Shown here in pieces: positions 5,417-14,957 of a stretch of 64,000 bases of DNA (position 1 is its first letter; every line of letters begins with the position of its first letter). The DNA comes from an uncultured Saprospiraceae bacterium. Its GTDB lineage: Bacteria > Bacteroidota > Bacteroidia > Chitinophagales > Saprospiraceae. The stretch is from positions 3,529 through 67,528 of the forward strand of contig CALDEM010000026.1 of the NCBI GenBank assembly GCA_937942435.1, given 5' to 3'. The notes beneath the pieces were generated by a model that saw only the letters and a program-made list of their open reading frames with translations, was not told where the DNA came from and did no database searches. Made by a program: the position numbers and the translations under genes.

Positions 5417-6445
5417 ATGGCTCACTCTGACAATTCTGTGGTTATACTGGCAATCGAATCTTCCTGCGATGACACATCAGCCGCTGTGATCAAAGATGGA
5501 CAGCTGTTAAGCAACCATATCGCCAATCAAACGGTTCACCAAAAATACGGAGGTGTCGTCCCTGAGCTGGCCTCAAGACAGCATCATCTACAAATCGTCC
5601 CTGTAATAGATGCAGCCATTAAGGATGCTGGTGTGACACTCCCTCAAGTTTCTGCTATAGCTTTTACCCAAGGGCCTGGTTTACTAGGTAGTTTATTGGT
5701 TGGATGCTCATTTGCCAAGGGTCTAGCACTTAGCTTAGACAAGCCGTTGATAGCGGTCAATCACATGGAAGCGCATGTTCTAGCTCACTTTGTAGAAGAG
5801 CCTCGGCCTACTTTCCCTTTCTTATGTCTTACCGTATCTGGAGGGCATACACAGATCGTCAGAGTAGATAGTGTAGATCAACTCACAGTCTTAGGCACAA
5901 CGAGAGATGATGCAGCTGGAGAAGCATTTGATAAGATCGGCAAATACCTCGAACTGGACTATCCCGCAGGGCCGATCATTGATAAGTTAGCAAAGGAAGG
6001 CAAACCAGTGTTCTCGTTTAACAAGCCCAGGATAGAGGGATTGGGTTTTAGCTTCAGCGGCTTAAAGACATCAGTCTTATACTTCTTAAGAGATCGACTT
6101 AAGGAAGATAAGGACTTTATTAAGAACAATCTTCATGATATCTGCGCTTCTGTCCAAGCGACTATCGTAGAGATCTTGATGGATAAGCTGATCAAAGCAA
6201 GTAAGCAAGAAGGCATATCACATATCGGTATCGCAGGAGGCGTATCAGCTAATAGTGCTTTGCGCAAAGCACTACAAGATCAGGCAGCTGTCCACAATTG
6301 GCATACTTATGTGCCTGCGATCCAATATTGCACAGATAACGCTGGCATGATCGCCATGGCTGCACACTACAAGTATCTTAATAAGGTGTTCGTAGATCAA
6401 AACGTAACACCTGAGCCACGACTTAAGATGAAGAGTGTAGTCTAA
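5417..6445 (+). CDS. tsaD: tRNA N6-adenosine threonylcarbamoyltransferase TsaD (Kae1/Gcp)
   Basis: ILAIESSCDDTSAAV, VNHMEAHVLA and GGVSAN motifs characteristic of TsaD. Confidence 0.9.
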   Translation: MAHSDNSVVILAIESSCDDTSAAVIKDGQLLSNHIANQTVHQKYGGVVPELASRQHHLQIVPVIDAAIKDAGVTLPQVSAIAFTQGPGLLGSLLVGCSFAKGLALSLDKPLIAVNHMEAHVLAHFVEEPRPTFPFLCLTVSGGHTQIVRVDSVDQLTVLGTTRDDAAGEAFDKIGKYLELDYPAGPIIDKLAKEGKPVFSFNKPRIEGLGFSFSGLKTSVLYFLRDRLKEDKDFIKNNLHDICASVQATIVEILMDKLIKASKQEGISHIGIAGGVSANSALRKALQDQAAVHNWHTYVPAIQYCTDNAGMIAMAAHYKYLNKVFVDQNVTPEPRLKMKSVV

Positions 6446-6462
6446 CATCCAAAAGGTAAACA

Positions 6463-6834
6463 ATGGCATACGACGAACATCTCGCAGATAGAGTAAGACA
6501 AATCTTTAAAGATCAAAAAGCAGACTTCTACGAAAAGAAAATGTTCGGCGGCTTATGTTTTATGATTGATGAAAAGATGTGCTGTGGCATTCTCTTCAAT
6601 AAAAAGAAAAACACTGACCTCTTGATGGCAAGAATAGGAGAAGACGCTTCATCCTCAGCCATGTCTAAAGAAGGATGCCAGCCTATGGACTTCACAAGGC
6701 GACCCATGAAGGGCTTTGTCTTTGTTACTCCCGATGGATATGACATGGACGATCAGTTATTGTATTGGGTGAAATTATGTCTTGATTTTAATCCATTTGC
6801 GAAAGCGAGTAAAAAGAGAAAAACCAACAAATAG
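6463..6834 (+). CDS. TfoX N-terminal domain-like protein
   Basis: 123 aa. LADRVRQIF...KKMFGGLCFMIDEKMCCGI matches the TfoX_N pattern. Confidence 0.6.
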   Translation: MAYDEHLADRVRQIFKDQKADFYEKKMFGGLCFMIDEKMCCGILFNKKKNTDLLMARIGEDASSSAMSKEGCQPMDFTRRPMKGFVFVTPDGYDMDDQLLYWVKLCLDFNPFAKASKKRKTNK

Positions 6835-6954
6835 CTCCTAATCATCTACTTGGCCTTACTAGCACTAACCCATAGGATCGCTTTATCTTTCAGACATAAT
6901 ATATATCTTACATCACCCAGTATTTTTTAAAAGTATAAATGGATACCGAGTCTA

Positions 6955-7944
6955 ATGAAGTTAACTAATATCAGATTAGAGGTGATGCAGACCATTGAAA
7001 AGTCAATGGATGAGATGCTTGAGAAATATTTGAAGCCAATAGAAACCAATTGGCAACCATCAGACTTTCTTCCAGACTCAAAGGATGATGACTTTTTTGA
7101 TAAGATCAGAGAGTTACAAGGACAGGCGCAAGAGATGAGCTATGATCTACTGGCTGTGCTGATCGGCGATACAATAACAGAAGAGGCACTGCCAACTTAT
7201 GAAGCATGGCTCATGAGTGTAGAAGGTGTAGACAATGATGGGCGCAATGGCTGGTCTCAATGGGTAAGGTCATGGACGGCAGAAGAAAACCGTCACGGCG
7301 ATCTACTCAATAAATATCTATACCTATGCGGTCGCGTGGATATGAGAGAGATGGAGATATCTACTCAGTATCTCATTAGTGATGGATTTGACATAGGTAC
7401 TGGGAGAGATCCATATAAGAACTTCGTCTATACGAGCTTTCAAGAGCTCGCCACTAATGTCTCACATAGAAGAGTGGCTACTTTGGCTCGCAAGGCCAAC
7501 AATCCAGAGCTCGCTAAGATGTGTGCATTTATAGCCGCTGATGAGGCAAGACATGCTAGCGCATACATCCACTTTGTCAATAAAATCATGGAGCTTGATG
7601 CCGATCAGATGATGCTCGCATTTGAAGATATGATGCGTAAGAAGATCGTGATGCCCGCTCATCTCATGAGACAATCAGGAAGTGATCTCGGTCTTGGAGA
7701 ATTGTTTGATCACTTTTCAGATGCGGCGCAACGCATCCAAGTATATACAACACATGACTACATAGACATCTTGCGATCCCTGATTGATCAATGGAACATC
7801 GGTAATATATCTGGCCTCACAGATATAGGTAACAAAGCACGTGATTATATCATGGCTCTGCCGGATAGACTACAACGCATCTCAGAACGAGTGAAGATCC
7901 CTGAGAAGCAATATGAGTTTAATTGGATCGGCAAGATCGCATAA
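6955..7944 (+). CDS. Soluble acyl-ACP desaturase (di-iron, stearoyl-ACP desaturase family)
   Basis: Two E-x-x-H di-iron motifs (TAEENRHGDLL and AADEARHASAY) with spacing typical of plant/actinobacterial acyl-ACP desaturases. Confidence 0.8.
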   Translation: MKLTNIRLEVMQTIEKSMDEMLEKYLKPIETNWQPSDFLPDSKDDDFFDKIRELQGQAQEMSYDLLAVLIGDTITEEALPTYEAWLMSVEGVDNDGRNGWSQWVRSWTAEENRHGDLLNKYLYLCGRVDMREMEISTQYLISDGFDIGTGRDPYKNFVYTSFQELATNVSHRRVATLARKANNPELAKMCAFIAADEARHASAYIHFVNKIMELDADQMMLAFEDMMRKKIVMPAHLMRQSGSDLGLGELFDHFSDAAQRIQVYTTHDYIDILRSLIDQWNIGNISGLTDIGNKARDYIMALPDRLQRISERVKIPEKQYEFNWIGKIA

Positions 7945-8066: not shown

Positions 8067-8099
8067 AAAGGGTCTTGGCGTTATAGCCAAGACCCTTTG
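8067..8099. terminator. Bidirectional intrinsic terminator between convergent genes
   Basis: A 10-bp GC-rich stem (GGGTCTTGGC / GCCAAGACCC) is flanked by AAAA on one side and TTTGTCATTT on the other. Confidence 0.75.
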
Positions 8100-8129: not shown

Positions 8130-11100
8130 CTAATCACAGAAGAACATATAGTTTCCACAAGTTTTCATAAAGTGAACATCACAACCATTGGCTGATTTGA
8201 TTTTAAAGGCTTGTCTATCGCGATCATTAGTATTGAGCGCTGAGTACTCATAGTGGTGTTGCTCTCCAAGTCCCAAGAGTCCCTTCTGTCCTCTGTCTAA
8301 AGTGACATTGGAGAAGAGTCCTGCACTTGCACCGGCAAATCCATTGCTATATCCCATCGATCTAAATACGTAATCCAAGTACTGCTGATCTCCTTGATTA
8401 GTACTATGTCTATCAGATAGCTTCTGATAAAACTGAGCTGGAGTTAAGCTATGACTATTACCAAACTCTGGATATGTACCCAAGCGAGCAACGCTCTTGG
8501 CTGGACCAGACGGAATCGTAAAGATTGCAACATTCCCTTTTTCTCCACAGTTACATCCCGCTACAGCAACTGGCGCTGGCTTAGGTGCTGGAGGGGGTGG
8601 CGTTGCCTTTACAGGTTCTGGTACCGGAGCTGGTTTAGGCGCTGGCGCTGGTGTCTCAACCTTTACTGGAGGCGGTGGTGGAGGTGTTGTCTCTCCTCCA
8701 CATCCTTTCATGCCTAGTAACCACCAAGCCAATAGTAACAACAGTGGTATTAATAACCACCACCATTTGAACCATCCTCCTCCTGATTCGGCAGCAGTCG
8801 CAACAGCTGCTGCTTTCTTCACTGGTGCTGCAGCCACCTTCTTTTTCACTGGCGCTGGCTCAACCTTCTTAGGTTCTACTTTCTTAGGCTCAGGCTTCTT
8901 AGCAACTACTGTAGCTGCTGTCGCAACCGCTGCAGCCGCAGTTGCAACCGGAGCTACTTTCTTTTCTTTCTTCTGTAAGCAAGATCTACCCACCTCGCGG
9001 CCTGTTTTATCAAAGAGGATATCCATGAAGTACTTGCCTTTCTCCTTGCGCTTGTACATGGATTCGTCATTGTGATACTTCAACACTCCTGAGAGTTCTT
9101 CATCTCTTTCTTTACCCGTTCTAAAGCCTTCACTTCTGAGCTTGACATCTCCATCTTTGTCATAAAGGGCAAAGTAGAACTGTCCATCACTATCATGCTT
9201 AAATAGTGCTACGTTGTTCTGCTTATCGTTGACCTTACGACCTTCGTACTCCTTACATGCTAAGTAATCGTCCTCTTTGTCTTTAGGAGGCGCTGGCTTA
9301 GGCGTTGGCGGTTCTGGCACTGCAGCCTTAGGCACCTCTGATACCAAAGGCGCAGCAACAGCAGCAGAGGCCGCAGCAACAGCAGCTCCTGGGAACCATG
9401 CTCTTGCAGCAGATTTTTCCTTATGAGGACAACTTCTTGCTATCTCCTGATGGTTACCTGCCTTGAGTACTGTAAAGAAGTATCCTGCCTTTTCATCTAT
9501 GCTAAATCGCTCTTCGAGCTCTCTATTTTTTATGACCGAAGCGATACCATTATCTCTGGCCTTTTCAGTTGTATAACCTTCACTACGCATCACAATCTTA
9601 CCGTCATCTACCCAAGCAAAGTAGTGTTCTCCTTCATGTGCAAACGTTATAAAGTCTTTATGATCTGCGCTAACGTCACTCATATGAGACTCATACACTC
9701 TGCATGCTAAGTAGTCATCTGATTTAGCCTTCGTCGCAGCAGCAGCCGTAACTGCAGCAGCGGCAGCCGCCGCCGCCTTCTCTTCTTCTGCCTTAGCAGC
9801 AGCTCTACTACTGATCGAACTTGGATACCAATACATCGCAGCTGCCTTATCTTTGTATGGGCAACTTCTGGCTATTTCTTGGTGATTGCCGGCTTTAAGA
9901 ACCGTAAAGAAATGTCCTGCCTTCTCGTCTAAGCTAAAACGCTCTTCTACCTCTCTATTTTTTATAACCGAAGCTATACCATTATCTCTGGCACTTTCAG
10001 ACCCGTATCCTTCACTTCTCATGACAACCTTTCCTTCGGCAATCCAAGCAAAGTAGTGTTCACCATCGTGTGTAAATGTTATAAAGTCGTCATGCTCTTT
10101 AGTAACATCTCCCAGATGAGACTCATACACTCTACATGCTAGGTAATCATCTGACTTTGCTTTCGCTTTTGCTGCAGCGGCAGCAGCAGCGGCCGCAGTT
10201 GCAGCTGCAGCCTCTTCTTCTGCTTTCCTTTTTGCCGCAGCTTCCTCTTCTGCCTTTCTTTTGGCAGCAGCTTCTTCCTCTGCTTTCTTAGCAGCCAATG
10301 CTGCTGCAGCAGCTGCCGCCCTTTTACCTATCTCTCCTGGATGCCAATACATAGCACCCGCATGATCTCCATTAGGGCAACCTCTTCCAATCTCTTGGTG
10401 GTTACCTGCCTTAAGGATTAGAAAATGAGAACCATCCTCTTCAATCACGCTATAGCGCTCCTCTAGATCTCGATTTTTAAGTACTGATTGGATACCATTG
10501 TCTCTTGACTTCTCGGTAGTATATCCTTCACTTCGTAAGATGACTTTACCTTCCCCTACCATAGCGAAGTAAAACTCACCTTCTTCAGAAAAAATGATGA
10601 AGTCATCACTATCAGGGCTCTTACTGCTCATGTGCCCTTCGTATGCACTGCAAGCGAGATATTCATCTTGACCAGCCTTTTTGGCAGCACCAGCACCACC
10701 TGTCGCTAACAGCAGAGAGCCGATAGCCACTTCCATTTCTTCCTCAGTGTTGAAGAAGAAACTCTTAGCTATGTTCTTACCATCTCCATCTTTGAGATAG
10801 TAGTAGAACTTATCATTTTTAGTAGTTTTCGATTCATAGTTGCCTCGGTCGGGGCCAAATTCTAATACCCTCTCTATCTTTGCTTGGCCCTGCTCTTGCG
10901 TCTCAAAACCTCTTACATCACTATTGAGAAGAATCGTCTTCTCTTCTGCATTTCTAAATGTAAAATAGTGTTTGCCATTGCCACTTCTAAATAACTGATA
11001 TGTGATATCCGTATCGTGGTATTTGCCATCAGCGAGATATACTTTATCGGCCTTTGGTTTTTTAGGTCCTGTTCTTTTCTTTCTTTTCTTCTTAGGTGCT

Positions 11101-11966
11101 TCACCACCCGCTGTGGCTCCTGCACTTGCCGTCGTAGTCGCAGCAGTGGCCGTTGAGGTTGAAGCTATACCTTGTGCAGTTGTAGAACCAGCTCCACTAC
11201 CTCCTCCTCTGCCACTCCCGCCGATTAGCGTAGAGATCGCAGCATCTCTTTCAGCTTCGCTATCAAACCAAGCACTTGTTGCTATTTCTTGATGGTTACC
11301 TGCTTTTAGGTTAAAGAAGTACTTACCGTTAGGATGTTGCTTGCGCTCGTATCTTGCTTCAAGGACCATATTTTTAGTAACAGAGTTGACCCCATTGTCA
11401 CGAGAGGTGTCACTAGAATAGCCTTCACTGATCATGTATATACTTCCATCTACTCGATATGAGAAGTAGGATTCTCCCGCTGCCGCAAATGAATCAAATC
11501 CATCTTTGACATCATCAGAACCATTAGTTACATAAAAGTTCAGCGGCTTGTAGTCATCTCCCTTACCGTCAGTATCATACGCTTCTCCACCATCGGGCTG
11601 TGCAGCAGGAGTTGTACTCGCTGAGGATGTCGACTTAGTTGAAGAGGTGCTTGATGATTTGCTACTGGATGAAGATCTACTTCTTTGGGCATAGTCCTTT
11701 GCTTTCTTAAGTGCCACAGCATCAGTATATCCTACCGATCTGGCTATCTCTTGATTGTTGCCTGCTTTTAAGATAAAGAATGTCTCTCCTCCTTCAGTTA
11801 CTTCGCTGTAGCGTTCGACCTTACTGATATTCGTCTTGACGGATTCGATTCCATTGTCCCTTGCATCTTTACCAGTGTAAGCTTGACTTTCAAGGATCGT
11901 GTTCCCATCCTCGTCAAGTATCTGGAAGTAGTAATTTTCTCCTCTTATGAACTTCCTTAGTTTCAT
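8130..11966 (-). CDS. Giant tail-anchored protein with seven double-YegP/DUF1508 modules (about 14 half-repeats), a single C-terminal TM helix, a poly-Pro spacer and a Cys-containing C-terminal domain
   Basis: Recurrent pattern YF..-G..I..SEGY....RDNGI.SV.KN...RY/F...G.YFF.LKAGNHQEIARS. Start is taken at ATG 11966 (MKLRKFIRGENYYFQ), because the first module begins there. The ORF is open to 12041. Confidence 0.8.
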   Translation of the reverse strand: MKLRKFIRGENYYFQILDEDGNTILESQAYTGKDARDNGIESVKTNISKVERYSEVTEGGETFFILKAGNNQEIARSVGYTDAVALKKAKDYAQRSRSSSSSKSSSTSSTKSTSSASTTPAAQPDGGEAYDTDGKGDDYKPLNFYVTNGSDDVKDGFDSFAAAGESYFSYRVDGSIYMISEGYSSDTSRDNGVNSVTKNMVLEARYERKQHPNGKYFFNLKAGNHQEIATSAWFDSEAERDAAISTLIGGSGRGGGSGAGSTTAQGIASTSTATAATTTASAGATAGGEAPKKKRKKRTGPKKPKADKVYLADGKYHDTDITYQLFRSGNGKHYFTFRNAEEKTILLNSDVRGFETQEQGQAKIERVLEFGPDRGNYESKTTKNDKFYYYLKDGDGKNIAKSFFFNTEEEMEVAIGSLLLATGGAGAAKKAGQDEYLACSAYEGHMSSKSPDSDDFIIFSEEGEFYFAMVGEGKVILRSEGYTTEKSRDNGIQSVLKNRDLEERYSVIEEDGSHFLILKAGNHQEIGRGCPNGDHAGAMYWHPGEIGKRAAAAAAALAAKKAEEEAAAKRKAEEEAAAKRKAEEEAAAATAAAAAAAAAKAKAKSDDYLACRVYESHLGDVTKEHDDFITFTHDGEHYFAWIAEGKVVMRSEGYGSESARDNGIASVIKNREVEERFSLDEKAGHFFTVLKAGNHQEIARSCPYKDKAAAMYWYPSSISSRAAAKAEEEKAAAAAAAAVTAAAATKAKSDDYLACRVYESHMSDVSADHKDFITFAHEGEHYFAWVDDGKIVMRSEGYTTEKARDNGIASVIKNRELEERFSIDEKAGYFFTVLKAGNHQEIARSCPHKEKSAARAWFPGAAVAAASAAVAAPLVSEVPKAAVPEPPTPKPAPPKDKEDDYLACKEYEGRKVNDKQNNVALFKHDSDGQFYFALYDKDGDVKLRSEGFRTGKERDEELSGVLKYHNDESMYKRKEKGKYFMDILFDKTGREVGRSCLQKKEKKVAPVATAAAAVATAATVVAKKPEPKKVEPKKVEPAPVKKKVAAAPVKKAAAVATAAESGGGWFKWWWLLIPLLLLLAWWLLGMKGCGGETTPPPPPPVKVETPAPAPKPAPVPEPVKATPPPPAPKPAPVAVAGCNCGEKGNVAIFTIPSGPAKSVARLGTYPEFGNSHSLTPAQFYQKLSDRHSTNQGDQQYLDYVFRSMGYSNGFAGASAGLFSNVTLDRGQKGLLGLGEQHHYEYSALNTNDRDRQAFKIKSANGCDVHFMKTCGNYMFFCD
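9390..10154 (-). repeat. Two adjacent ~432-nt coding repeat units (YegP modules 5 and 6, highly similar at protein level)
   Basis: KSDDYLACRVYESH...FITF.H.GEHYFAW...MRSEGY...ARDNGIASVIKNRE.EERFS.DEKAG.FFTVLKAGNHQEIARSCP occurs twice, 144 codons apart. Confidence 0.85.
10207..10296 (-). repeat. Three tandem 30-nt units encoding (A)EEEAAAKRK
   Basis: Units at 10207-10236, 10237-10266 and 10267-10296 are near-identical. Translation is AEEEAAAKRKAEEEAAAKRKAEEEAAA. Confidence 0.85.
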
Positions 11967-12335
11967 AGTACTTGTGGTTTTAACGTTTAAATAATTAGCC
12001 GGCATCCCATAAATCGTCCGACGTAATAAAAATGATTTCACCCTATATAAACAAGCTTATAATATTGGGCTCAAATCCCCTTTGAACGGAAAAAATAGGG
12101 AAAATATGAATGGATGAAGAATCTTTGGATCACTTTAGAACTTTAACTAATAAGTTCTCGATAAAAAGCCCTAATTCCTTCGGGGAGGAAATGTTAAAAA
12201 CTCGACTATTTGACTCTAATATATCGCCTATAATATCACTAATCTGAAGTCAAGAGCCAGTGTCGCACTTAAAAATCAAGCCTAAGAAACAACAAAGGTG
12301 CACAAGCACATAAACACTTAATCATATGGGACACT

Positions 12336-13700
12336 TTACCCCCTCGACAAGGTCTCAGAAATATCTGTATTGGAGGCTTGGATAGCTGGGAGTAGAGATG
12401 CAAAGAAACCAAGTAAAATAGCTGCGAGAAGAAGCCACCATTCATTGGGCAGCATATATCCTCCTGTGAAGTCATATCGATAGTCTTCCTTCATGACTTT
12501 ACCGATGATGTACATCCCTGTATGGCTCAAGATGATGCCTATGATGTATCCAAGAATCGCTAAGATGATGCCCTCTAAAATAATCAAACTAAACAGGGTT
12601 GACTTACTTCCGCCCATCACCCGCATCAAGGCAAGTTCATACTTGCGATCTTTTAAAGAACTGTAGAGTGATATAAATATGCTTAGGCCCGAGACGAATA
12701 TGATGACCATAGCTAAGATCCTTAATGCATACTCGGCGCTACTCATCATACTAAACAATCGATTGATCTCTATAGCTGGTGTTGCCGCTTGCATCTCGGT
12801 ATTCTCATTGATGCTTCGGCCCATGTTAAGCGCTTGAAAGTTGTTGCCCTTAAACCGAAGTAATAACGAAGTGATGGATCCTTCATCATCTTCTAAACTC
12901 AACGCCTTGGGTGTCTCAGCATGACTATGTCCATGCGCGTCTTGGTGATCATCATGATCATGAGCGGAGTGATCGTGTCCAGCATGATCATGCCCTTCAC
13001 GATCTCGACCATCATTGTCATCACTTTGTTCGATGGATTGTTCGTCTTCAGCAACAGCTTCTGCGCCATGATCATGGTCATGTACATGCCAATAGGTCTG
13101 GGGAGTAGTTAGGATCAACTGATCAACTATCGTCCCTGATGATGCTAAGATGCCAACTACGATAAAGTCAGGTGTCTCATCATGCTCAAGGCCATCATCA
13201 TCGACCAATCCATGAGAACTCTTAAAGTGATCACCTACTTTGAGTTGAAGGTCGCGAGCAGCAGATGCACCAAGCGTCACATCATAGTTATGAATGAACA
13301 TTTCGCCTTGAGCGAGCTGAAGGTTGTACCAATCAGTTATATCTGTAGTCGTACCAACGATACGATATCCTTTGTAAGAATCACCCATCGACAATGGTAA
13401 TGCTGACTTAATCAGAGGATGCTTAGGATTAAGAAAAGGGCGGATCTCTCCAAGTGTTATGTTGCCTGTAGGCGCATCTATGTGATACATACTGCTCAAG
13501 ATCAACTGAAGCGGACTTCCTTTAGATCCAATGACCAAGTCCACCTCGGCTAAGTTCTTCTCAAAGTTTTTCTGAATCTGATCCTCTAACAAAAACAGCA
13601 TAGATATCAATCCAACGCCTAATCCAAATAGCAAGAGGCTAAGCGTCGTATTGAGTGGCTTACTCAGTAGATTCTTCCATGATAACTTCAATAGATTCAT
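12336..13700 (-). CDS. ABC transporter permease, FtsX/MacB-type, with a His/Asp-rich insertion in the large extracytoplasmic loop
   Basis: One N-terminal TM helix, a ~280-aa loop, then three C-terminal TM helices (FtsX architecture). The loop contains HVHDHDHG...GHDHAGHDHSAHDHDDHQDAHGHSHAE. Confidence 0.8.
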   Translation of the reverse strand: MNLLKLSWKNLLSKPLNTTLSLLLFGLGVGLISMLFLLEDQIQKNFEKNLAEVDLVIGSKGSPLQLILSSMYHIDAPTGNITLGEIRPFLNPKHPLIKSALPLSMGDSYKGYRIVGTTTDITDWYNLQLAQGEMFIHNYDVTLGASAARDLQLKVGDHFKSSHGLVDDDGLEHDETPDFIVVGILASSGTIVDQLILTTPQTYWHVHDHDHGAEAVAEDEQSIEQSDDNDGRDREGHDHAGHDHSAHDHDDHQDAHGHSHAETPKALSLEDDEGSITSLLLRFKGNNFQALNMGRSINENTEMQAATPAIEINRLFSMMSSAEYALRILAMVIIFVSGLSIFISLYSSLKDRKYELALMRVMGGSKSTLFSLIILEGIILAILGYIIGIILSHTGMYIIGKVMKEDYRYDFTGGYMLPNEWWLLLAAILLGFFASLLPAIQASNTDISETLSRG

Positions 13701-14323
13701 AAGCTGATCATATTCTTGAAGTTATCCTTTAGGCGTTGATCATGTGTGACAACTATCAGCGTAGCGTCATACTTATCAGCTTGCGTTTTAAGCAGCTCGA
13801 TGACTTGTTCAGTATTAGTATCATCAAGTGCAGATGTTGGCTCGTCGGCAAATATGATTTTTGGCTCATTGACCATCGCTCTCAAGATGGCTACTCTTTG
13901 TTGTTCGCCAAGGCTTAATTGATTGGTCCTTTTGTTGCCCTTGCCATCCAAGTTAAGATCAGAAAGTAATCCTTTTACCTTATCGCGTTGAGCAACACCT
14001 CCTGAAAGAGTCTGAGCCAATGTGATGTTATCAATTACATCAAGTGATCTTAAAAAGTGAGGCACTTGAAAAATCATACCCATATTGCTACCTCTGAACT
14101 TATCGATATCAGAAGATGTCATGGCTGTGATCTCTTTATCAAGAATAGTTATGGAACCAGAAGTTGGCTTTCTTAATCCAGCTAATAGATGAAGCAACGT
14201 AGTCTTGCCACAACCTGAAGCTCCTATAATCAATGTGTGCACTCCTTGTTGTATCTCAATATCCTCAAAAGACAGATTTTGCCCTCCTTCATAAGTATAT
14301 GAAAGTTGTGAAGTACGAATCAT
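13697..14323 (-). CDS. ABC transporter ATP-binding protein (LolD/MacB-like)
   Basis: Walker A GASGCGKTTLL, signature LSLGEQQRVAI, Walker B IIFADEPTSALD. Start is taken at ATG 14323 (MIRTSQL), which avoids overlap with the upstream gene. Overlaps the permease by 4 nt. Confidence 0.85.
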   Translation of the reverse strand: MIRTSQLSYTYEGGQNLSFEDIEIQQGVHTLIIGASGCGKTTLLHLLAGLRKPTSGSITILDKEITAMTSSDIDKFRGSNMGMIFQVPHFLRSLDVIDNITLAQTLSGGVAQRDKVKGLLSDLNLDGKGNKRTNQLSLGEQQRVAILRAMVNEPKIIFADEPTSALDDTNTEQVIELLKTQADKYDATLIVVTHDQRLKDNFKNMISL

Positions 14324-14340
14324 GAAGTGAAGGTAATCTT

Positions 14341-14715
14341 CTATTGCGATTTTCTTGGAGATAAAAGTCTCCAATTAAACCAGTGGCCCATCAACAAGAC
14401 AAATCCACCTATCGCCATCAACGGATGTCCTATGGCTGGCACCAAAAGGCCAAAGACAATAACCAAAGCTCCGCCACCGATCATCAATTGAGGTATAAGC
14501 TTACCATGACCTCTTAATCCGTTGTATATGGACCACAAACCTAAGATGGCAGAAGTTAAGATAACGGCTGCTTCAATGACGCCGTGTGTACCTTCTTGGA
14601 TAGATCCAAGTAAGCCTAAGGAGATCATTAAGGGAAGTGCTGCACAATGCACAGCGCAAAGACCTGAGGTAATTATACCCAATTGATCAATCTTACTTTG
14701 ATTCGTTCTACTCAT
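14341..14715 (-). CDS. MerC-family membrane protein
   Basis: About 125 aa with four hydrophobic helices and GLCAVHCAALPL (the Cys-x-x-His-Cys region typical of MerC-domain proteins). Start is taken at ATG 14715, not the TTG at 14754. Confidence 0.6.
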   Translation of the reverse strand: MSRTNQSKIDQLGIITSGLCAVHCAALPLMISLGLLGSIQEGTHGVIEAAVILTSAILGLWSIYNGLRGHGKLIPQLMIGGGALVIVFGLLVPAIGHPLMAIGGFVLLMGHWFNWRLLSPRKSQ

Positions 14716-14957
14716 GCTTATGCAACAATGCTGCAAATATATAGTTTTTGTCAATAAAGTAAAATTACAATTAGCAACAGTTTATGTAAGCTATCTATAT
14801 ACTTTGATTTAAAATCACCACTTGATATCTGCGCTTGTTTTGCATGTAGGCCATGACATGTTAACCTAACTCATGCTTCTTTATCTTATTTGAGGGCATT
14901 CTTTAGTCTTTGATTTAGCATAGTCCGTCGATTTACTTGGAAAAGATAATTTTTTAC

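Follow-up and report, generated by a model that had tools for sequence, protein, structure and literature searches.

An array of seven YegP (DUF1508) modules with a transmembrane helix and a conserved C-terminal Cys/His domain in a Saprospiraceae bacterium

The locus and the authenticity of the gene

The window analysed here is a stretch of 64,000 nucleotides from an uncultured Saprospiraceae bacterium. Positions 8130..12041 of its minus strand form one open reading frame, in which the ATG at 11966 is the likely start and gives a protein of 1278 aa, identical to the database protein P0001. In a close relative (L001), the frame opens just nine codons before the same MKLRKF start, without a start codon in between. 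The locus comprises:

8130..11966, minus strand: whole gene, 1278 aa plus stop (ORF list, translation); predicted bitopic protein with seven YegP modules, a transmembrane (TM) helix, a Pro-rich linker and a C-terminal domain (CTD)
11967..12335, minus strand: upstream intergenic region, 369 bp, presumed location of the gene's own promoter (ORF map)
8067..8098, minus strand: terminator-like hairpin with a 13-bp stem and a T-rich tail (consensus scan, pattern match only)

The hairpin lies 32 nt past the stop codon, between convergent genes. The consensus scan gave one sigma-70-like match in the upstream region (12086-12059), which is a pattern only and not evidence of function; the Bacteroidota-type TAnnTTTG promoter motif was looked for upstream of the gene and was not found.

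The initial annotation of this DNA had described a poly-YegP array whose one polypeptide chain is anchored in the membrane at a single site, and the translation agrees. The concern that it might be a misassembled repeat region is removed by the low DNA identity between modules (65-78%), which rules out an assembly artefact, by the existence of at least 351 homologues, and by a dN/dS of 0.05 for the whole protein compared to the L001 orthologue (0.02-0.07 for the YegP modules and 0.01 for the CTD). The gene encodes a genuine, strongly conserved 1278-residue bacterial membrane protein. It is not a rarity: the homologues are found in Saprospiraceae, other Bacteroidota and some marine Caulobacterales, and the architecture represents a widespread family already annotated as "DUF1508 domain-containing protein". 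The survey of homologues detected no conserved gene neighbours, so that gene context lends no functional support, and a PADLOC scan for defence systems gave no match. As noted at the outset, no function has been described; YegP arrays are mentioned merely in passing in the literature (bioRxiv 10.1101/2024.11.21.623966).

YegP modules

The Pfam DUF1508 model (PF07411) matches the whole protein with E = 5.6e-85 (279.5 bits, 11 significant stretches), and the seven double modules proposed initially were recovered with limits that agree to within a few codons:

11682-11966, minus strand: M1, aa 1-95, canonical YegP double half-domain from residue 1 (DUF1508 67.9 bits, 2 stretches)
11217-11564, minus strand: M2, aa 135-250, with a DDYKPLNFY N-terminal extension and without the Cys pair (61.7 bits)
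10692-11054, minus strand: M3, aa 305-425, divergent YegP double module (32.6 bits, 2 stretches)
10332-10673, minus strand: M4, aa 432-545, type B, with the DEYLAC..YEGH extension and the RGC Cys (53.6 bits)
9807-10157, minus strand: M5, aa 604-720, type B (67.1 bits)
9387-9728, minus strand: M6, aa 747-860, type B (57.9 bits)
8967-9278, minus strand: M7, aa 897-1000, membrane-proximal, distinct subtype (RSEGFRT..ERD.ELSGVLK .. GREVGRSC; 21.1 bits alone)

Scanned singly, all seven modules match DUF1508, M1-M6 with 32.6-67.9 bits and M7 with 21.1 bits (E 2.8e-4), slightly below the gathering cut-off of 22 bits; 12 of the 14 half-domains pass individually. Structure prediction agrees with this assignment. 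The AF2 model of M5 (pLDDT 94.6) was matched by Foldseek to the YegP NMR structures 2k8e (TM 0.65) and 2k49 (TM 0.69) at an rmsd of 2.4 Å, and the profile of type-B modules matches 2K49 at E 1.5e-19 and 2K8E at E 1.4e-18.

Each module therefore contains the same tandem pair of DUF1508 half-domains as E. coli YegP (2K8E) and Shewanella SO_3888 (2K49) of the YegP/UPF0339/DUF1508 family. Whereas those proteins have one module per chain, the window protein has seven, together with a membrane anchor and a probably periplasmic domain. A further distinction is the additional N-terminal extension of about 25 residues, DDY(L/K)xCxxY, which is found on five of the seven modules; in four of these five, the second half is shortened and a covarying pair of Cys is present as well. 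The Cys pair of type-B modules is strictly co-occurring (both residues in 459 modules, neither in 121, one only in 5). Such co-occurrence is seen more typically in extracytoplasmic domains with disulfide bonds, and counts against a cytoplasmic array.

The initial picture of beads on a string implied equivalent units. Judged from sequence comparison, the module subtypes are instead individually orthologous, with an order broadly kept across homologues, and are not interchangeable. M1, M2, M3 and M7 most often best match the first, second, third, and last or second-to-last modules of homologues, respectively, with exceptions; for example, the best match of M1 is the first module in many homologues, not in all, and the orthologue of M2 is usually second. 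M3 and the third module of homologues share 50-69% identity, M3 and its own paralogues 25-30%. M7 commonly shows 59-78% identity (range about 30-78%) to its best-matching module, versus 35-39% to paralogues. M4 is 58-61% identical to M5 and M6, and M6 is 77% identical to M5 (78% at the DNA level), which points to a recent duplicate.

The second half of the type-B modules also bears on a reading in which the array would tether hibernating ribosomes to the membrane via RMF-like motifs. The Pfam RMF model (PF04957) gives sub-threshold scores on the RSCPY...W tail (12.9 bits in M6 and 24.3 bits in P0003), and it appears among the precomputed Pfam domains of three homologues. However, every score is under the gathering cut-off of 27.9, and in alignments the RMF-like stretch coincides with the S-x-G-Y motif that ordinary YegP half-domains have; the likeness is thus most simply a diverged repeat, and we consider ribosome tethering extremely improbable.

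Linkers and polybasic segments

The spacers have the compositions given in the initial annotation (Ser/Thr-rich, Gly-rich, KKKRKKR basic, Ala/Glu/Lys and Pro-rich):

11565..11681, minus strand: L1, aa 96-134, Ser/Thr-rich (composition)
11052..11096, minus strand: conserved polybasic motif PKKKRKKRTGPKKPK, aa 291-305, directly before M3 (recurrence across homologues)
10158..10331, minus strand: L4, aa 546-603, Ala/Glu/Lys repeats (AEEEAAAKRK x3; 33 Ala, 9 Glu, 9 Lys)
9279..9386, minus strand: L6, aa 861-896, Pro/Ala-rich (composition)
8775..8966, minus strand: juxtamembrane basic segment, aa 1001-1064, Lys/Pro/Ala/Val-rich (net charge +8, pI 10.1)

L1 is the least constrained segment (dN/dS 0.27 compared to L001). 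The linker at aa 251-304 is Gly/Thr-rich and includes PKKKRKKR, and the motif PKKKRKKR..KPKxEKV recurs ahead of M3-type modules across homologues; in 42 of 56 cases, the 35 residues upstream of M3-type matches have a net charge of at least +6. L4, which probably forms a single helix, has a dN/dS of 0.03 compared to L001 and differs in length in P0002, where an additional M7-type module is inserted at the L6 site. A second Ala/Glu/Lys helical linker spans aa 721-746.

Membrane anchor and C-terminal domain

Three features follow the juxtamembrane segment:

8709..8774, minus strand: TM helix, aa 1065-1086, WFKWWWLLIPLLLLLAWWLLGM (hydropathy)
8559..8708, minus strand: Pro-rich linker, aa 1087-1136, 20 Pro in 50 residues, putatively periplasmic (composition)
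8133..8558, minus strand: CTD, aa 1137-1278, a 142-aa Cys/His domain with motifs LGTxPEFGNSH, MGYxNGF and HFMKTCGN (alignment A1)

Since the TM helix is followed by 192 residues, made up of the 50-aa Pro-rich linker (dN/dS 0.01 compared to L001) and a conserved 142-aa domain, the protein is not tail-anchored, as had been supposed. The helix is part of a conserved cassette, GGG-W/F-x-WWWLLPLLLL...[KR]GC, common to OmpA-type arrays and to CTD-bearing EAD11 and HhH proteins.

The CTD is a previously undescribed conserved domain, present in 89 of the 120 top homologues and rare overall, with only 245 cluster representatives among 1.84 billion proteins. Scans against Pfam and NCBIfam gave no match, nor did a fold search of its AF2 model (pLDDT 88.9) against PDB and BFVD; no similarity to peptidoglycan-binding domains was detectable by sequence or by fold.

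Its position is that of an OmpA_C/MotB-like domain in at least three architectures: (i) YegP arrays with the TM helix; (ii) signal-peptide outer-membrane beta-barrels of Caulobacterales (PF13505); (iii) signal-peptide barrels of Bacteroidota (DUF6089 with TSP_3). More distant homologues of these barrel proteins bear OmpA_C in its stead. Likewise, 20 of the 120 top homologues list OmpA_C (PF00691) instead of the CTD in precomputed Pfam lists. The OmpA-type YegP arrays of Bacteroidota (P0045, P0076, P0095, P0106) belong to the same family and share the multiple YegP modules, the GGG-WWWLLPLLLL-[KR]GC cassette and the linker; they end in OmpA_C, whereas the window protein ends in the unclassified CTD. 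OmpA_C was C-terminal to the same cassette in all four arrays scanned (in P0045, TM about 1136-1153 and OmpA 1226-1309). It should be noted that the two domains have no sequence or fold similarity. P0171 consists of a signal peptide and the CTD, and nothing else. Other N-termini preceding the CTD are a J-domain (P0200, N-terminal of the TM helix), EAD11 (P0177, P0224), CHAT (P0246) and an array of four HhH modules on the same TM cassette (P0232). We infer that the CTD is periplasmic and serves as an envelope anchor.

The OmpA_C-like positions of the CTD and its J-domain, EAD11 and HhH-array partners suggest an N-in/C-out topology, with a cytoplasmic array and a periplasmic anchor. J-domains act in the cytoplasm together with DnaK. 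The net charge of +8 in the Lys-rich segment preceding the helix is a positive-inside signal that places the N-side in the cytoplasm. As originally noted, there is no signal peptide: the N-terminus has no hydrophobic run and the DUF1508 match begins at residue 11. The YegP array is most probably cytoplasmic, in agreement with the initial annotation. The reverse arrangement, in which a repeat protein stabilised by disulfides would face the cell surface or the periplasm and the C-terminal domain the cytoplasm, would account for the all-or-none Cys pair, the usual signature of a disulfide, and for Ser/Thr-rich and Pro-rich linkers, which are common in exported proteins. It conflicts with the missing signal peptide (the first YegP strand starts at residue 7-11), the positive-inside rule, the J-domain fused on the N-side in P0200, and the occurrence of the CTD directly after signal peptides, outer-membrane barrels and OmpA_C; no export route, Sec/YidC included, is known for an N-terminal tail of 1000 residues that lacks a signal. 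We regard it as very improbable.

The conservation of the CTD raises a different alternative, in which this periplasmic domain would be the working part, with enzyme or effector activity directed at the envelope through a Cys/His site, and the array its sensor or regulator, e.g., for stress or infection input. Constraint on the protein is strongest in the CTD (99% identity, dN/dS 0.01 compared to L001). Of 254 CTD sequences, 249 retain the Cys of HFMKTCGN, among them four of the five that lack the other four Cys, and 248 retain one particular His; these near-invariant residues resemble a catalytic or metal site more than they do a surface for passive binding. EAD11 and CHAT domains, to which the CTD is fused, accompany effector modules in conflict systems. 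In P0180, the CTD (588-731) follows OmpA_C (469-563) rather than substituting for it, and may therefore do something other than anchoring. Conversely, the CTD resembles no enzyme by fold or sequence, PADLOC gave no match, neither defence-island nor other conserved neighbours were found, the CTD was absent from viral contigs, and in most architectures it fills the exact OmpA_C slot. An effector role is, in our view, rather unlikely.

Proposed role

We favour, with moderate confidence, an envelope-anchored, multivalent cytoplasmic tether on a bitopic inner-membrane protein. The analysis shows which domains the protein contains, the order of its modules, the selection on it and the pattern of domain swaps, and gives confident fold models; the topology, the envelope binding of the CTD and the scaffold role are derived from the comparisons above.

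Known systems offer partial parallels. The polar hubs HubP, FimV and TspA are fixed scaffolds in which a single TM helix links a peptidoglycan-binding domain in the periplasm to a very long cytoplasmic region with repeats, a layout that resembles the one proposed for the window protein. However, their orientation is reversed, with an N-terminal LysM exported by a signal or anchor; the window protein has no LysM, and their cytoplasmic repeats are unrelated and acidic, not folded YegP modules, with no known sequence relationship to it. DjlA-like membrane-anchored J-domain proteins, P0200 and P0232 also place a cytoplasmic module on the inner membrane via one TM helix. In DjlA, this helix is at the N-terminus and no periplasmic domain is known, whereas P0200 and P0232 carry the CTD of the window protein behind the helix (P0232 with the same cassette as well) and differ from it in cytoplasmic cargo.

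As to the ligand, our preferred guess, a tentative one, is a polyanion, for instance nucleoid DNA or RNA. It is hinted at by PKKKRKKR before M3, by the HhH array of P0232, and by the comparison of DUF1508 pseudo-dimers to the PC4/Whirly ssDNA-binding topology (PMC12065111). That the modules themselves are acidic (pI 4.7-6.3) argues against their binding nucleic acid directly. A more specific version, in which the polybasic segments and perhaps PC4/Whirly-like modules hold DNA or RNA at a wall-fixed site, draws on the same hints and on the +8 juxtamembrane tail; it is weakened by the acidic modules, by the absence of PC4/Whirly folds from the top 50 Foldseek matches for a YegP module, by the lack of nucleic-acid-related neighbours, and because membrane-adjacent polybasic stretches can equally bind acidic phospholipids. 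We consider this version unlikely.

In the envelope-anchored tether that we favour, the first 1064 residues would stay in the cytoplasm. They comprise seven YegP pseudo-dimers that belong to distinct subtypes, follow a broadly conserved order and are connected by flexible or helical linkers, as well as two polybasic segments that are likewise conserved. The chain would cross the membrane once, as the TM helix, and the stiff Pro-rich linker would then carry the CTD into the periplasm, where it may engage a peptidoglycan or outer-membrane-associated structure of the cell envelope, the place where OmpA_C-like domains normally sit. The cytoplasmic array of about 1000 residues would thereby be fixed at one cell-wall location, and each type of module would offer a surface to which a cytoplasmic ligand could bind.

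Reading frame, authenticity and selective constraint

The array protein is encoded by a single long ORF on the minus strand (8130-12041 in the ORF listing), in which the ATG at 11966 is the likely start, giving a protein of 1278 aa. The following features are used in the analysis.

11052-11096, minus strand: polybasic motif PKKKRKKRTGPKKPK, in front of module M3
10158-10331, minus strand: inter-module linker L4
8709-8774, minus strand: transmembrane (TM) cassette
8133-8558, minus strand: Cys/His C-terminal domain (CTD)

The orthologue P0002, encoded at locus L001 of an uncultured Saprospiraceae MAG, opens with the identical MKLRKF; the frame begins nine codons further upstream, with no start codon there. 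The window protein is identical to the database entry P0001. The DNA copies of modules M4, M5 and M6 are only 65-78% identical, and the array is therefore not a collapsed or misassembled repeat, an explanation that is also ruled out by the intact ORF of P0002. Substitution rates against this orthologue are as follows.

dN/dS of the array gene and its parts against P0002 (L001)
Whole gene: 0.05 (dS about 1.15)
YegP modules: 0.02-0.07
Ser/Thr, Gly and Pro/Ala linkers: 0.12-0.27
Pro-rich linker, putatively periplasmic: 0.01
CTD: 0.01

The array gene is real and strongly constrained. A strong hairpin followed by a T-tract was found, by pattern match only, 32 nt past the stop codon. The intergenic region upstream of the gene comprises 369 bp, and the Bacteroidota-type promoter motif TAnnTTTG is absent from the upstream sequence. 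Further YegP modules or CTD copies were looked for elsewhere in the window, and none were found.

YegP modules and their order

The initial annotation described seven YegP/DUF1508 double modules (M1-M7) in this protein, and the profile searches confirmed them: the Pfam DUF1508 model matched with E 5.6e-85 and 279.5 bits in 11 significant stretches, and 12 of the 14 half-domains passed individually. When the modules were scanned singly, M1-M6 scored 32.6-67.9 bits each and M7 scored 21.1 bits (E 2.8e-4), against a gathering score of 22. The earlier module coordinates match independently set limits, with deviations of no more than a few codons, and the composition of the linkers is as first described. 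The reported lack of an N-terminal signal peptide also holds, in that the N-terminus is free of hydrophobic runs and the first DUF1508 match begins as early as residue 11.

Structure prediction of a single module (M5; AF2 model, pLDDT 94.6) gave a YegP-like fold with the element order E25-30, E33-40, E43-47, H54-67, E74-79, E82-88, E94-97, i.e., two beta-beta-beta-alpha half-domains that form a pseudo-dimer. This model resembles the structures of E. coli YegP (2K8E; Foldseek TM 0.65) and SO_3888 (2K49; TM 0.69), with probability 1.00. The second helix is shortened in the type-B modules (M4, M5 and M6), and five modules (M2 and M4-M7) carry an N-terminal extension of ~25 residues, DDY(L/K)xCxxY, that lies outside the region covered by YegP structures. 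Foldseek also aligned the M5 model to a YegP-like domain in chain AD of PDB 7b5h (probability 1.00, TMq 0.53, 88 aligned columns), which belongs to a baseplate component, 1109 residues long, of the contractile injection system of Anabaena. Each module of the array is a genuine YegP/DUF1508 domain; however, the whole chain is not a usual YegP protein, which is a small stand-alone soluble protein of about 60-120 aa, whereas the window protein combines seven modules, a TM segment and the CTD in 1278 aa.

An HMM built from the window modules and run on the collected proteins detected 846 modules, with a maximum of 10 per protein. For every window module, we then sought the best-matching module in each homologue. 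M1, M2 and M3 most often matched modules one, two and three, respectively, and M7 most often matched the final or penultimate module, commonly at 59-78% identity, compared to only 35-39% identity between M7 and its own paralogues. This order has exceptions, as the best match lies elsewhere in the array in several homologues. The view of the modules as equivalent beads on a string is thus not supported: the module subtypes keep a broadly conserved order. M4-M6 are recent duplicates, with 58-77% identity to each other. P0002 holds eight modules, the additional one being of the M7 type; therefore, the copy number shifts between close relatives.

Linkers and the polybasic motif

The KKKRKKR stretch had been listed among the spacers, but it is not low-complexity filler: PKKKRKKR..KPKxEKV recurs directly ahead of M3-type modules, even where the M3 of a homologue is no more than about 50% identical, and a motif of the PKKKRKKRTGPKKPK type is kept in this position in most of the 56 M3-type matches examined. 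The motif shares its opening residues with PKKKRKV, which we take to be the nuclear localisation signal of SV40 large T. The YegP modules are acidic (pI 4.7-6.3), with the exception of M7 (pI 7.9), and linker L2 and the juxtamembrane segment are strongly basic.

Linker L4 consists of three AEEEAAAKRK repeats between poly-Ala stretches and, unlike other linkers, is under tight constraint (dN/dS 0.03); it is longer in P0002. L4 looks like an ER/K-type single alpha-helix and may act as a rigid spacer.

A coupled pair of cysteines in M4-M7

Modules M4-M7 each contain two cysteines, one in the DDYLAC extension and the other in an RSC motif beyond the last strand, at the following positions.

M4: aa 439 and 531
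M5: aa 611 and 703
M6: aa 754 and 846
M7: aa 904 and 996

Across 585 modules, both cysteines are present in 459, neither in 121, and a single one in 5; it should be noted that these counts do not translate into a probability because the modules are kin. This pattern of co-occurrence indicates that the two residues are coupled, through a disulfide or a shared ligand. A redox switch, a metal site that both residues share and a stable disulfide are all conceivable, and the pair is odd in a domain for which we infer a cytoplasmic location.

The C-terminal domain

The sole strongly hydrophobic segment of the window protein is aa 1065-1086 (WFKWWWLLIPLLLLLAWWLLGM); the remaining hydropathy peaks in homologues are poly-Ala linkers. 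Beyond this segment lie 192 residues, in which a 50-residue linker that contains 20 Pro precedes a 142-aa domain; 89 of the 120 best homologues share this domain, with identities of 40-99%. Therefore, contrary to the initial annotation, the protein is not tail-anchored. The conserved motifs of the CTD are LGTxPEFGNSH, MGYxNGF and HFMKTCGN.

The CTD matched no Pfam or NCBIfam model, and a Pfam scan of aa 1087-1278 at E <= 1 returned only one chance match (0.27). Its AF2 model, built from a 22-sequence alignment (pLDDT 88.9, pTM 0.85), has two helices on a six-stranded sheet; Foldseek searches with this model found nothing significant in the PDB (best E 0.14, TM 0.22) or in BFVD, and the sequence profile found nothing below E 0.39 among PDB sequences. 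With the CTD alone as query, a word-indexed search returned only 21 short fragments, and the CTD profile recovered only 245 proteins from 1.84 billion cluster representatives, in which the domain is almost always at the extreme C-terminus. It was not found in IMG/VR viral contigs. A scan of one genome per species yielded 218 CTD-encoding loci; among the best 80 of these, the carriers outside Saprospiraceae are mostly marine Caulobacterales (Hellea, Litorimonas, Algimonas, Robiginitomaculum), and cultured carriers include Hellea balneolensis DSM 19091 and Litorimonas strains. These cultured strains encode the CTD in barrel or DUF11 proteins only, and the YegP-array loci (L059 and L072, for example) come from MAGs. 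The family also occurs at loci L030, L031, L036 and L054 and in the proteins P0142-P0269.

In Caulobacterales, the CTD usually terminates a protein of ~500 aa that comprises a signal peptide and an outer membrane beta-barrel (PF13505), an OmpA-like layout in which the CTD fills the slot of OmpA_C. In Bacteroidota, it terminates DUF6089/OMP_b-brl + TSP_3 proteins, the distant homologues of which are alike in the N-terminal part and end in OmpA_C. Another protein, P0171, consists of a signal peptide and the CTD, with nothing else. The CTD is not OmpA_C-like (PF00691) in sequence or fold, according to Pfam, Foldseek against the PDB, and the profile search of PDB sequences; the two domains have the periplasmic C-terminal position in common, and the analogy is functional only. 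The CTD also ends DUF11 giants and PD40/CarboxypepD_reg proteins, and it follows several cytoplasmic cargos that are anchored by a TM helix.

We counted the co-occurrence of the five CTD cysteines (C1-C5) over 254 distinct CTD sequences, as follows.

All five cysteines: 132 sequences
C1 and C3 jointly missing: 82 sequences
C4 (HFMKTCGN) alone kept: 4 sequences

C4 is kept in 249 and one His in 248 of the 254 sequences, and the Glu/His of PEFGNSH are nearly invariant. From this conservation pattern, we predict that C1-C3 and C2-C5 form disulfides and that a functional Cys stays free near conserved His residues. Such a pattern would suit a reactive site or a metal centre better than a surface that only binds, and for this reason we keep the alternative that the CTD is an enzyme or effector, not an anchor. 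Fusions of the CTD to EAD11 and CHAT proteins (the CHAT-PKD protein P0246 ends in the CTD) are in line with this alternative, as is P0180, in which OmpA_C (469-563) and the CTD (588-731) stand in tandem; the replacement of OmpA_C by the CTD in barrel proteins accords with the anchor.

Membrane topology

The TM cassette has the form GGG-[FW]-x-WWWLLPLLLL...-[KR]-G-C-x-G-C, with a Pro within the helix. It is also found in P0003, P0033, P0045, P0076, P0177, P0232 and P0252, and is common to CTD-type and OmpA-type proteins with unrelated N-termini. One or two cysteines sit just outside the helix; they do not form a canonical lipobox, and this juxtamembrane Cys may be a disulfide partner. In P0102 and P0112, the same cassette leads into a short coiled stretch, and the chain ends in a conserved GGNKNSGY/F sequence, a third type of tail in place of the CTD or OmpA_C.

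The Lys-rich segment on the N-side of the helix has a net charge of +8, and the C-side is about zero. OmpA_C (PF00691), a periplasmic peptidoglycan-binding domain, is listed instead of the CTD in 20 of the 120 top homologues (precomputed Pfam lists), and it was located C-terminal to the same cassette in all four OmpA-type homologues that were scanned (in P0045, for example, TM about 1136-1153 and OmpA_C 1226-1309). On the N-side of the helix, CTD proteins carry a DnaJ J-domain (P0200), which works in the cytoplasm, and, with the same cassette, EAD11 (P0177, P0224) or four HhH modules (P0232). The absence of a signal peptide, the charge of the N-side, the occurrence of the CTD in OmpA_C, barrel and signal-peptide contexts, and the J-domain fusion therefore argue strongly for an N-in/C-out protein, with the CTD in the periplasm and the YegP array in the cytoplasm. 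Of the scaffold first proposed, a cytoplasmic, membrane-anchored array is probable on these several lines of topology evidence; its tail anchor and its equivalent beads have to be given up.

The array family and its gene neighbourhood

Among 8000 candidates scored, at least 351 array homologues were found at E <= 1e-5; those that bear a name are annotated as "DUF1508 domain-containing protein" or "YegP family". The array family is neither rare nor confined to this genome. It should be added that the precomputed Pfam lists of P0014, P0016, P0034, P0043 and P0006 carry the newer accessions PF27293, PF27151 and PF25941, which our local copy of Pfam did not report.

The array gene behaves as a stand-alone unit. 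In a survey of 14 BLAST-clustered loci, no neighbour was conserved beyond close relatives, and three more distant genomes, for which precomputed Pfam annotation was used, have no conserved neighbour of the array gene either; the neighbours differ, and no conserved operon was found in this set. The flanking genes look like housekeeping genes: by eye, 5417-7944 (plus strand) encodes TsaD/Kae1-like, small TfoX-N-like and acyl-ACP-desaturase-like proteins, and 12336-14754 (minus strand) encodes an FtsX-like ABC permease that contains a His/Asp-rich insert, along with an ABC ATPase and a small membrane protein. Neither of these groups is kept beside homologues of the array gene.

Several other identities were rejected. 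Membership in a defence system has no support from PADLOC-DB, where the only two matches (PtuB) have E about 1e-3 and no stretch passes alone; the only phage-family match is one YegP-like PHROG with no assigned function. Ribosome modulation factor (PF04957) scored 12.9 bits on M6 and 24.3 bits on the homologue P0003, below the cut-off of 27.9, and the motif can be explained as a diverged S-x-G-Y half-domain motif. HNH-like matches (TIGR02646, PtuB) on the DDYLAC..YESH extension are not significant (E about 1e-3 to 7e-3), and the NCBIfam matches to TrpRS PRK12284, TolA, SrfA and invert_tail fall on YegP or low-complexity stretches, far under their cut-offs. A T9SS cargo is excluded by the absence of a signal peptide and of PF18962 (Por_Secre_tail), and the CTD is also common in Caulobacterales, which are not known to have a T9SS.

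HubP and FimV are wall-anchored cytoplasmic hubs and, by layout, the closest functional analogues of the window protein; however, they are not homologous to it, and their orientation is the opposite one. Pfam and NCBIfam scans of the window protein found no LysM or FimV match.

Candidate ligand and implications

YegP/DUF1508 proteins are widespread and stress-linked, their structures have been solved, and the domain is now emerging in settings that involve Bub, Menshen and capK/capS. A preprint (10.1101/2024.11.21.623966) gives a single sentence to extended arrays of DUF1508, and our full-text literature searches returned no study of them. What is new here is the architecture in which a known domain is found: it is ordered and envelope-anchored, has not been described before, and is coupled to an unclassified periplasmic domain. 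The function of the protein as a whole is one that we infer.

The metagenomic protein P0232 (963 aa) has the same design as the window protein with a different cargo, HhH instead of YegP: four tandem HhH domains (HHH_5) and an Ala/Glu/Lys helix of ~150 aa are followed by a basic patch, then by the same TM cassette and the CTD. HhH motifs bind DNA. The DUF1508 pseudo-dimer has been likened to the ssDNA-binding topology of PC4/Whirly (PMC12065111); in our Foldseek search of the PDB with the M5 model, PC4/Whirly was not among the 50 best matches, a result to be read with the provision that topology-level likeness can evade Foldseek. Given the PKKKRKKR motif, the basic segments, the parallel with P0232 and the PC4/Whirly analogy, our first candidate for the ligand of the array is a polyanion, most plausibly nucleic acid, a tentative assignment in which our confidence is low. 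Acidic phospholipid is the obvious alternative ligand for the basic patches.

A more inclusive reading, which we regard as improbable as a whole, combines this candidate with the CTD. The CTD would be a periplasmic envelope module of a new fold with a reactive Cys/His centre; the module would attach to peptidoglycan or remodel it, rather than merely bind it, and would have been recruited instead of OmpA_C by outer membrane barrels and by a whole class of "inside-out anchors". The YegP array would be a wall-fixed cytoplasmic hub, where ordered modules and the SV40-NLS-like PKKKRKKR patch trap nucleic acid or nucleoprotein in defined places.

Arrays of 4 to 10 modules in a broadly fixed order, anchored in the membrane, present the YegP fold as a multivalent modular binding unit, and the array family is a system in which the YegP ligand could be sought. 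The CTD is an unclassified, highly conserved periplasmic domain that alternates with OmpA_C in envelope proteins of Bacteroidota and marine Caulobacterales. If the proposed topology is true, the TM cassette with its periplasmic anchor would be a general device that fixes cytoplasmic modules to the cell wall, with YegP arrays, HhH arrays, J-domains and EAD11 as its cargos; and if the reading that joins a nucleic-acid hub to a reactive CTD is true, this would be the first cellular role for the YegP/DUF1508 fold.
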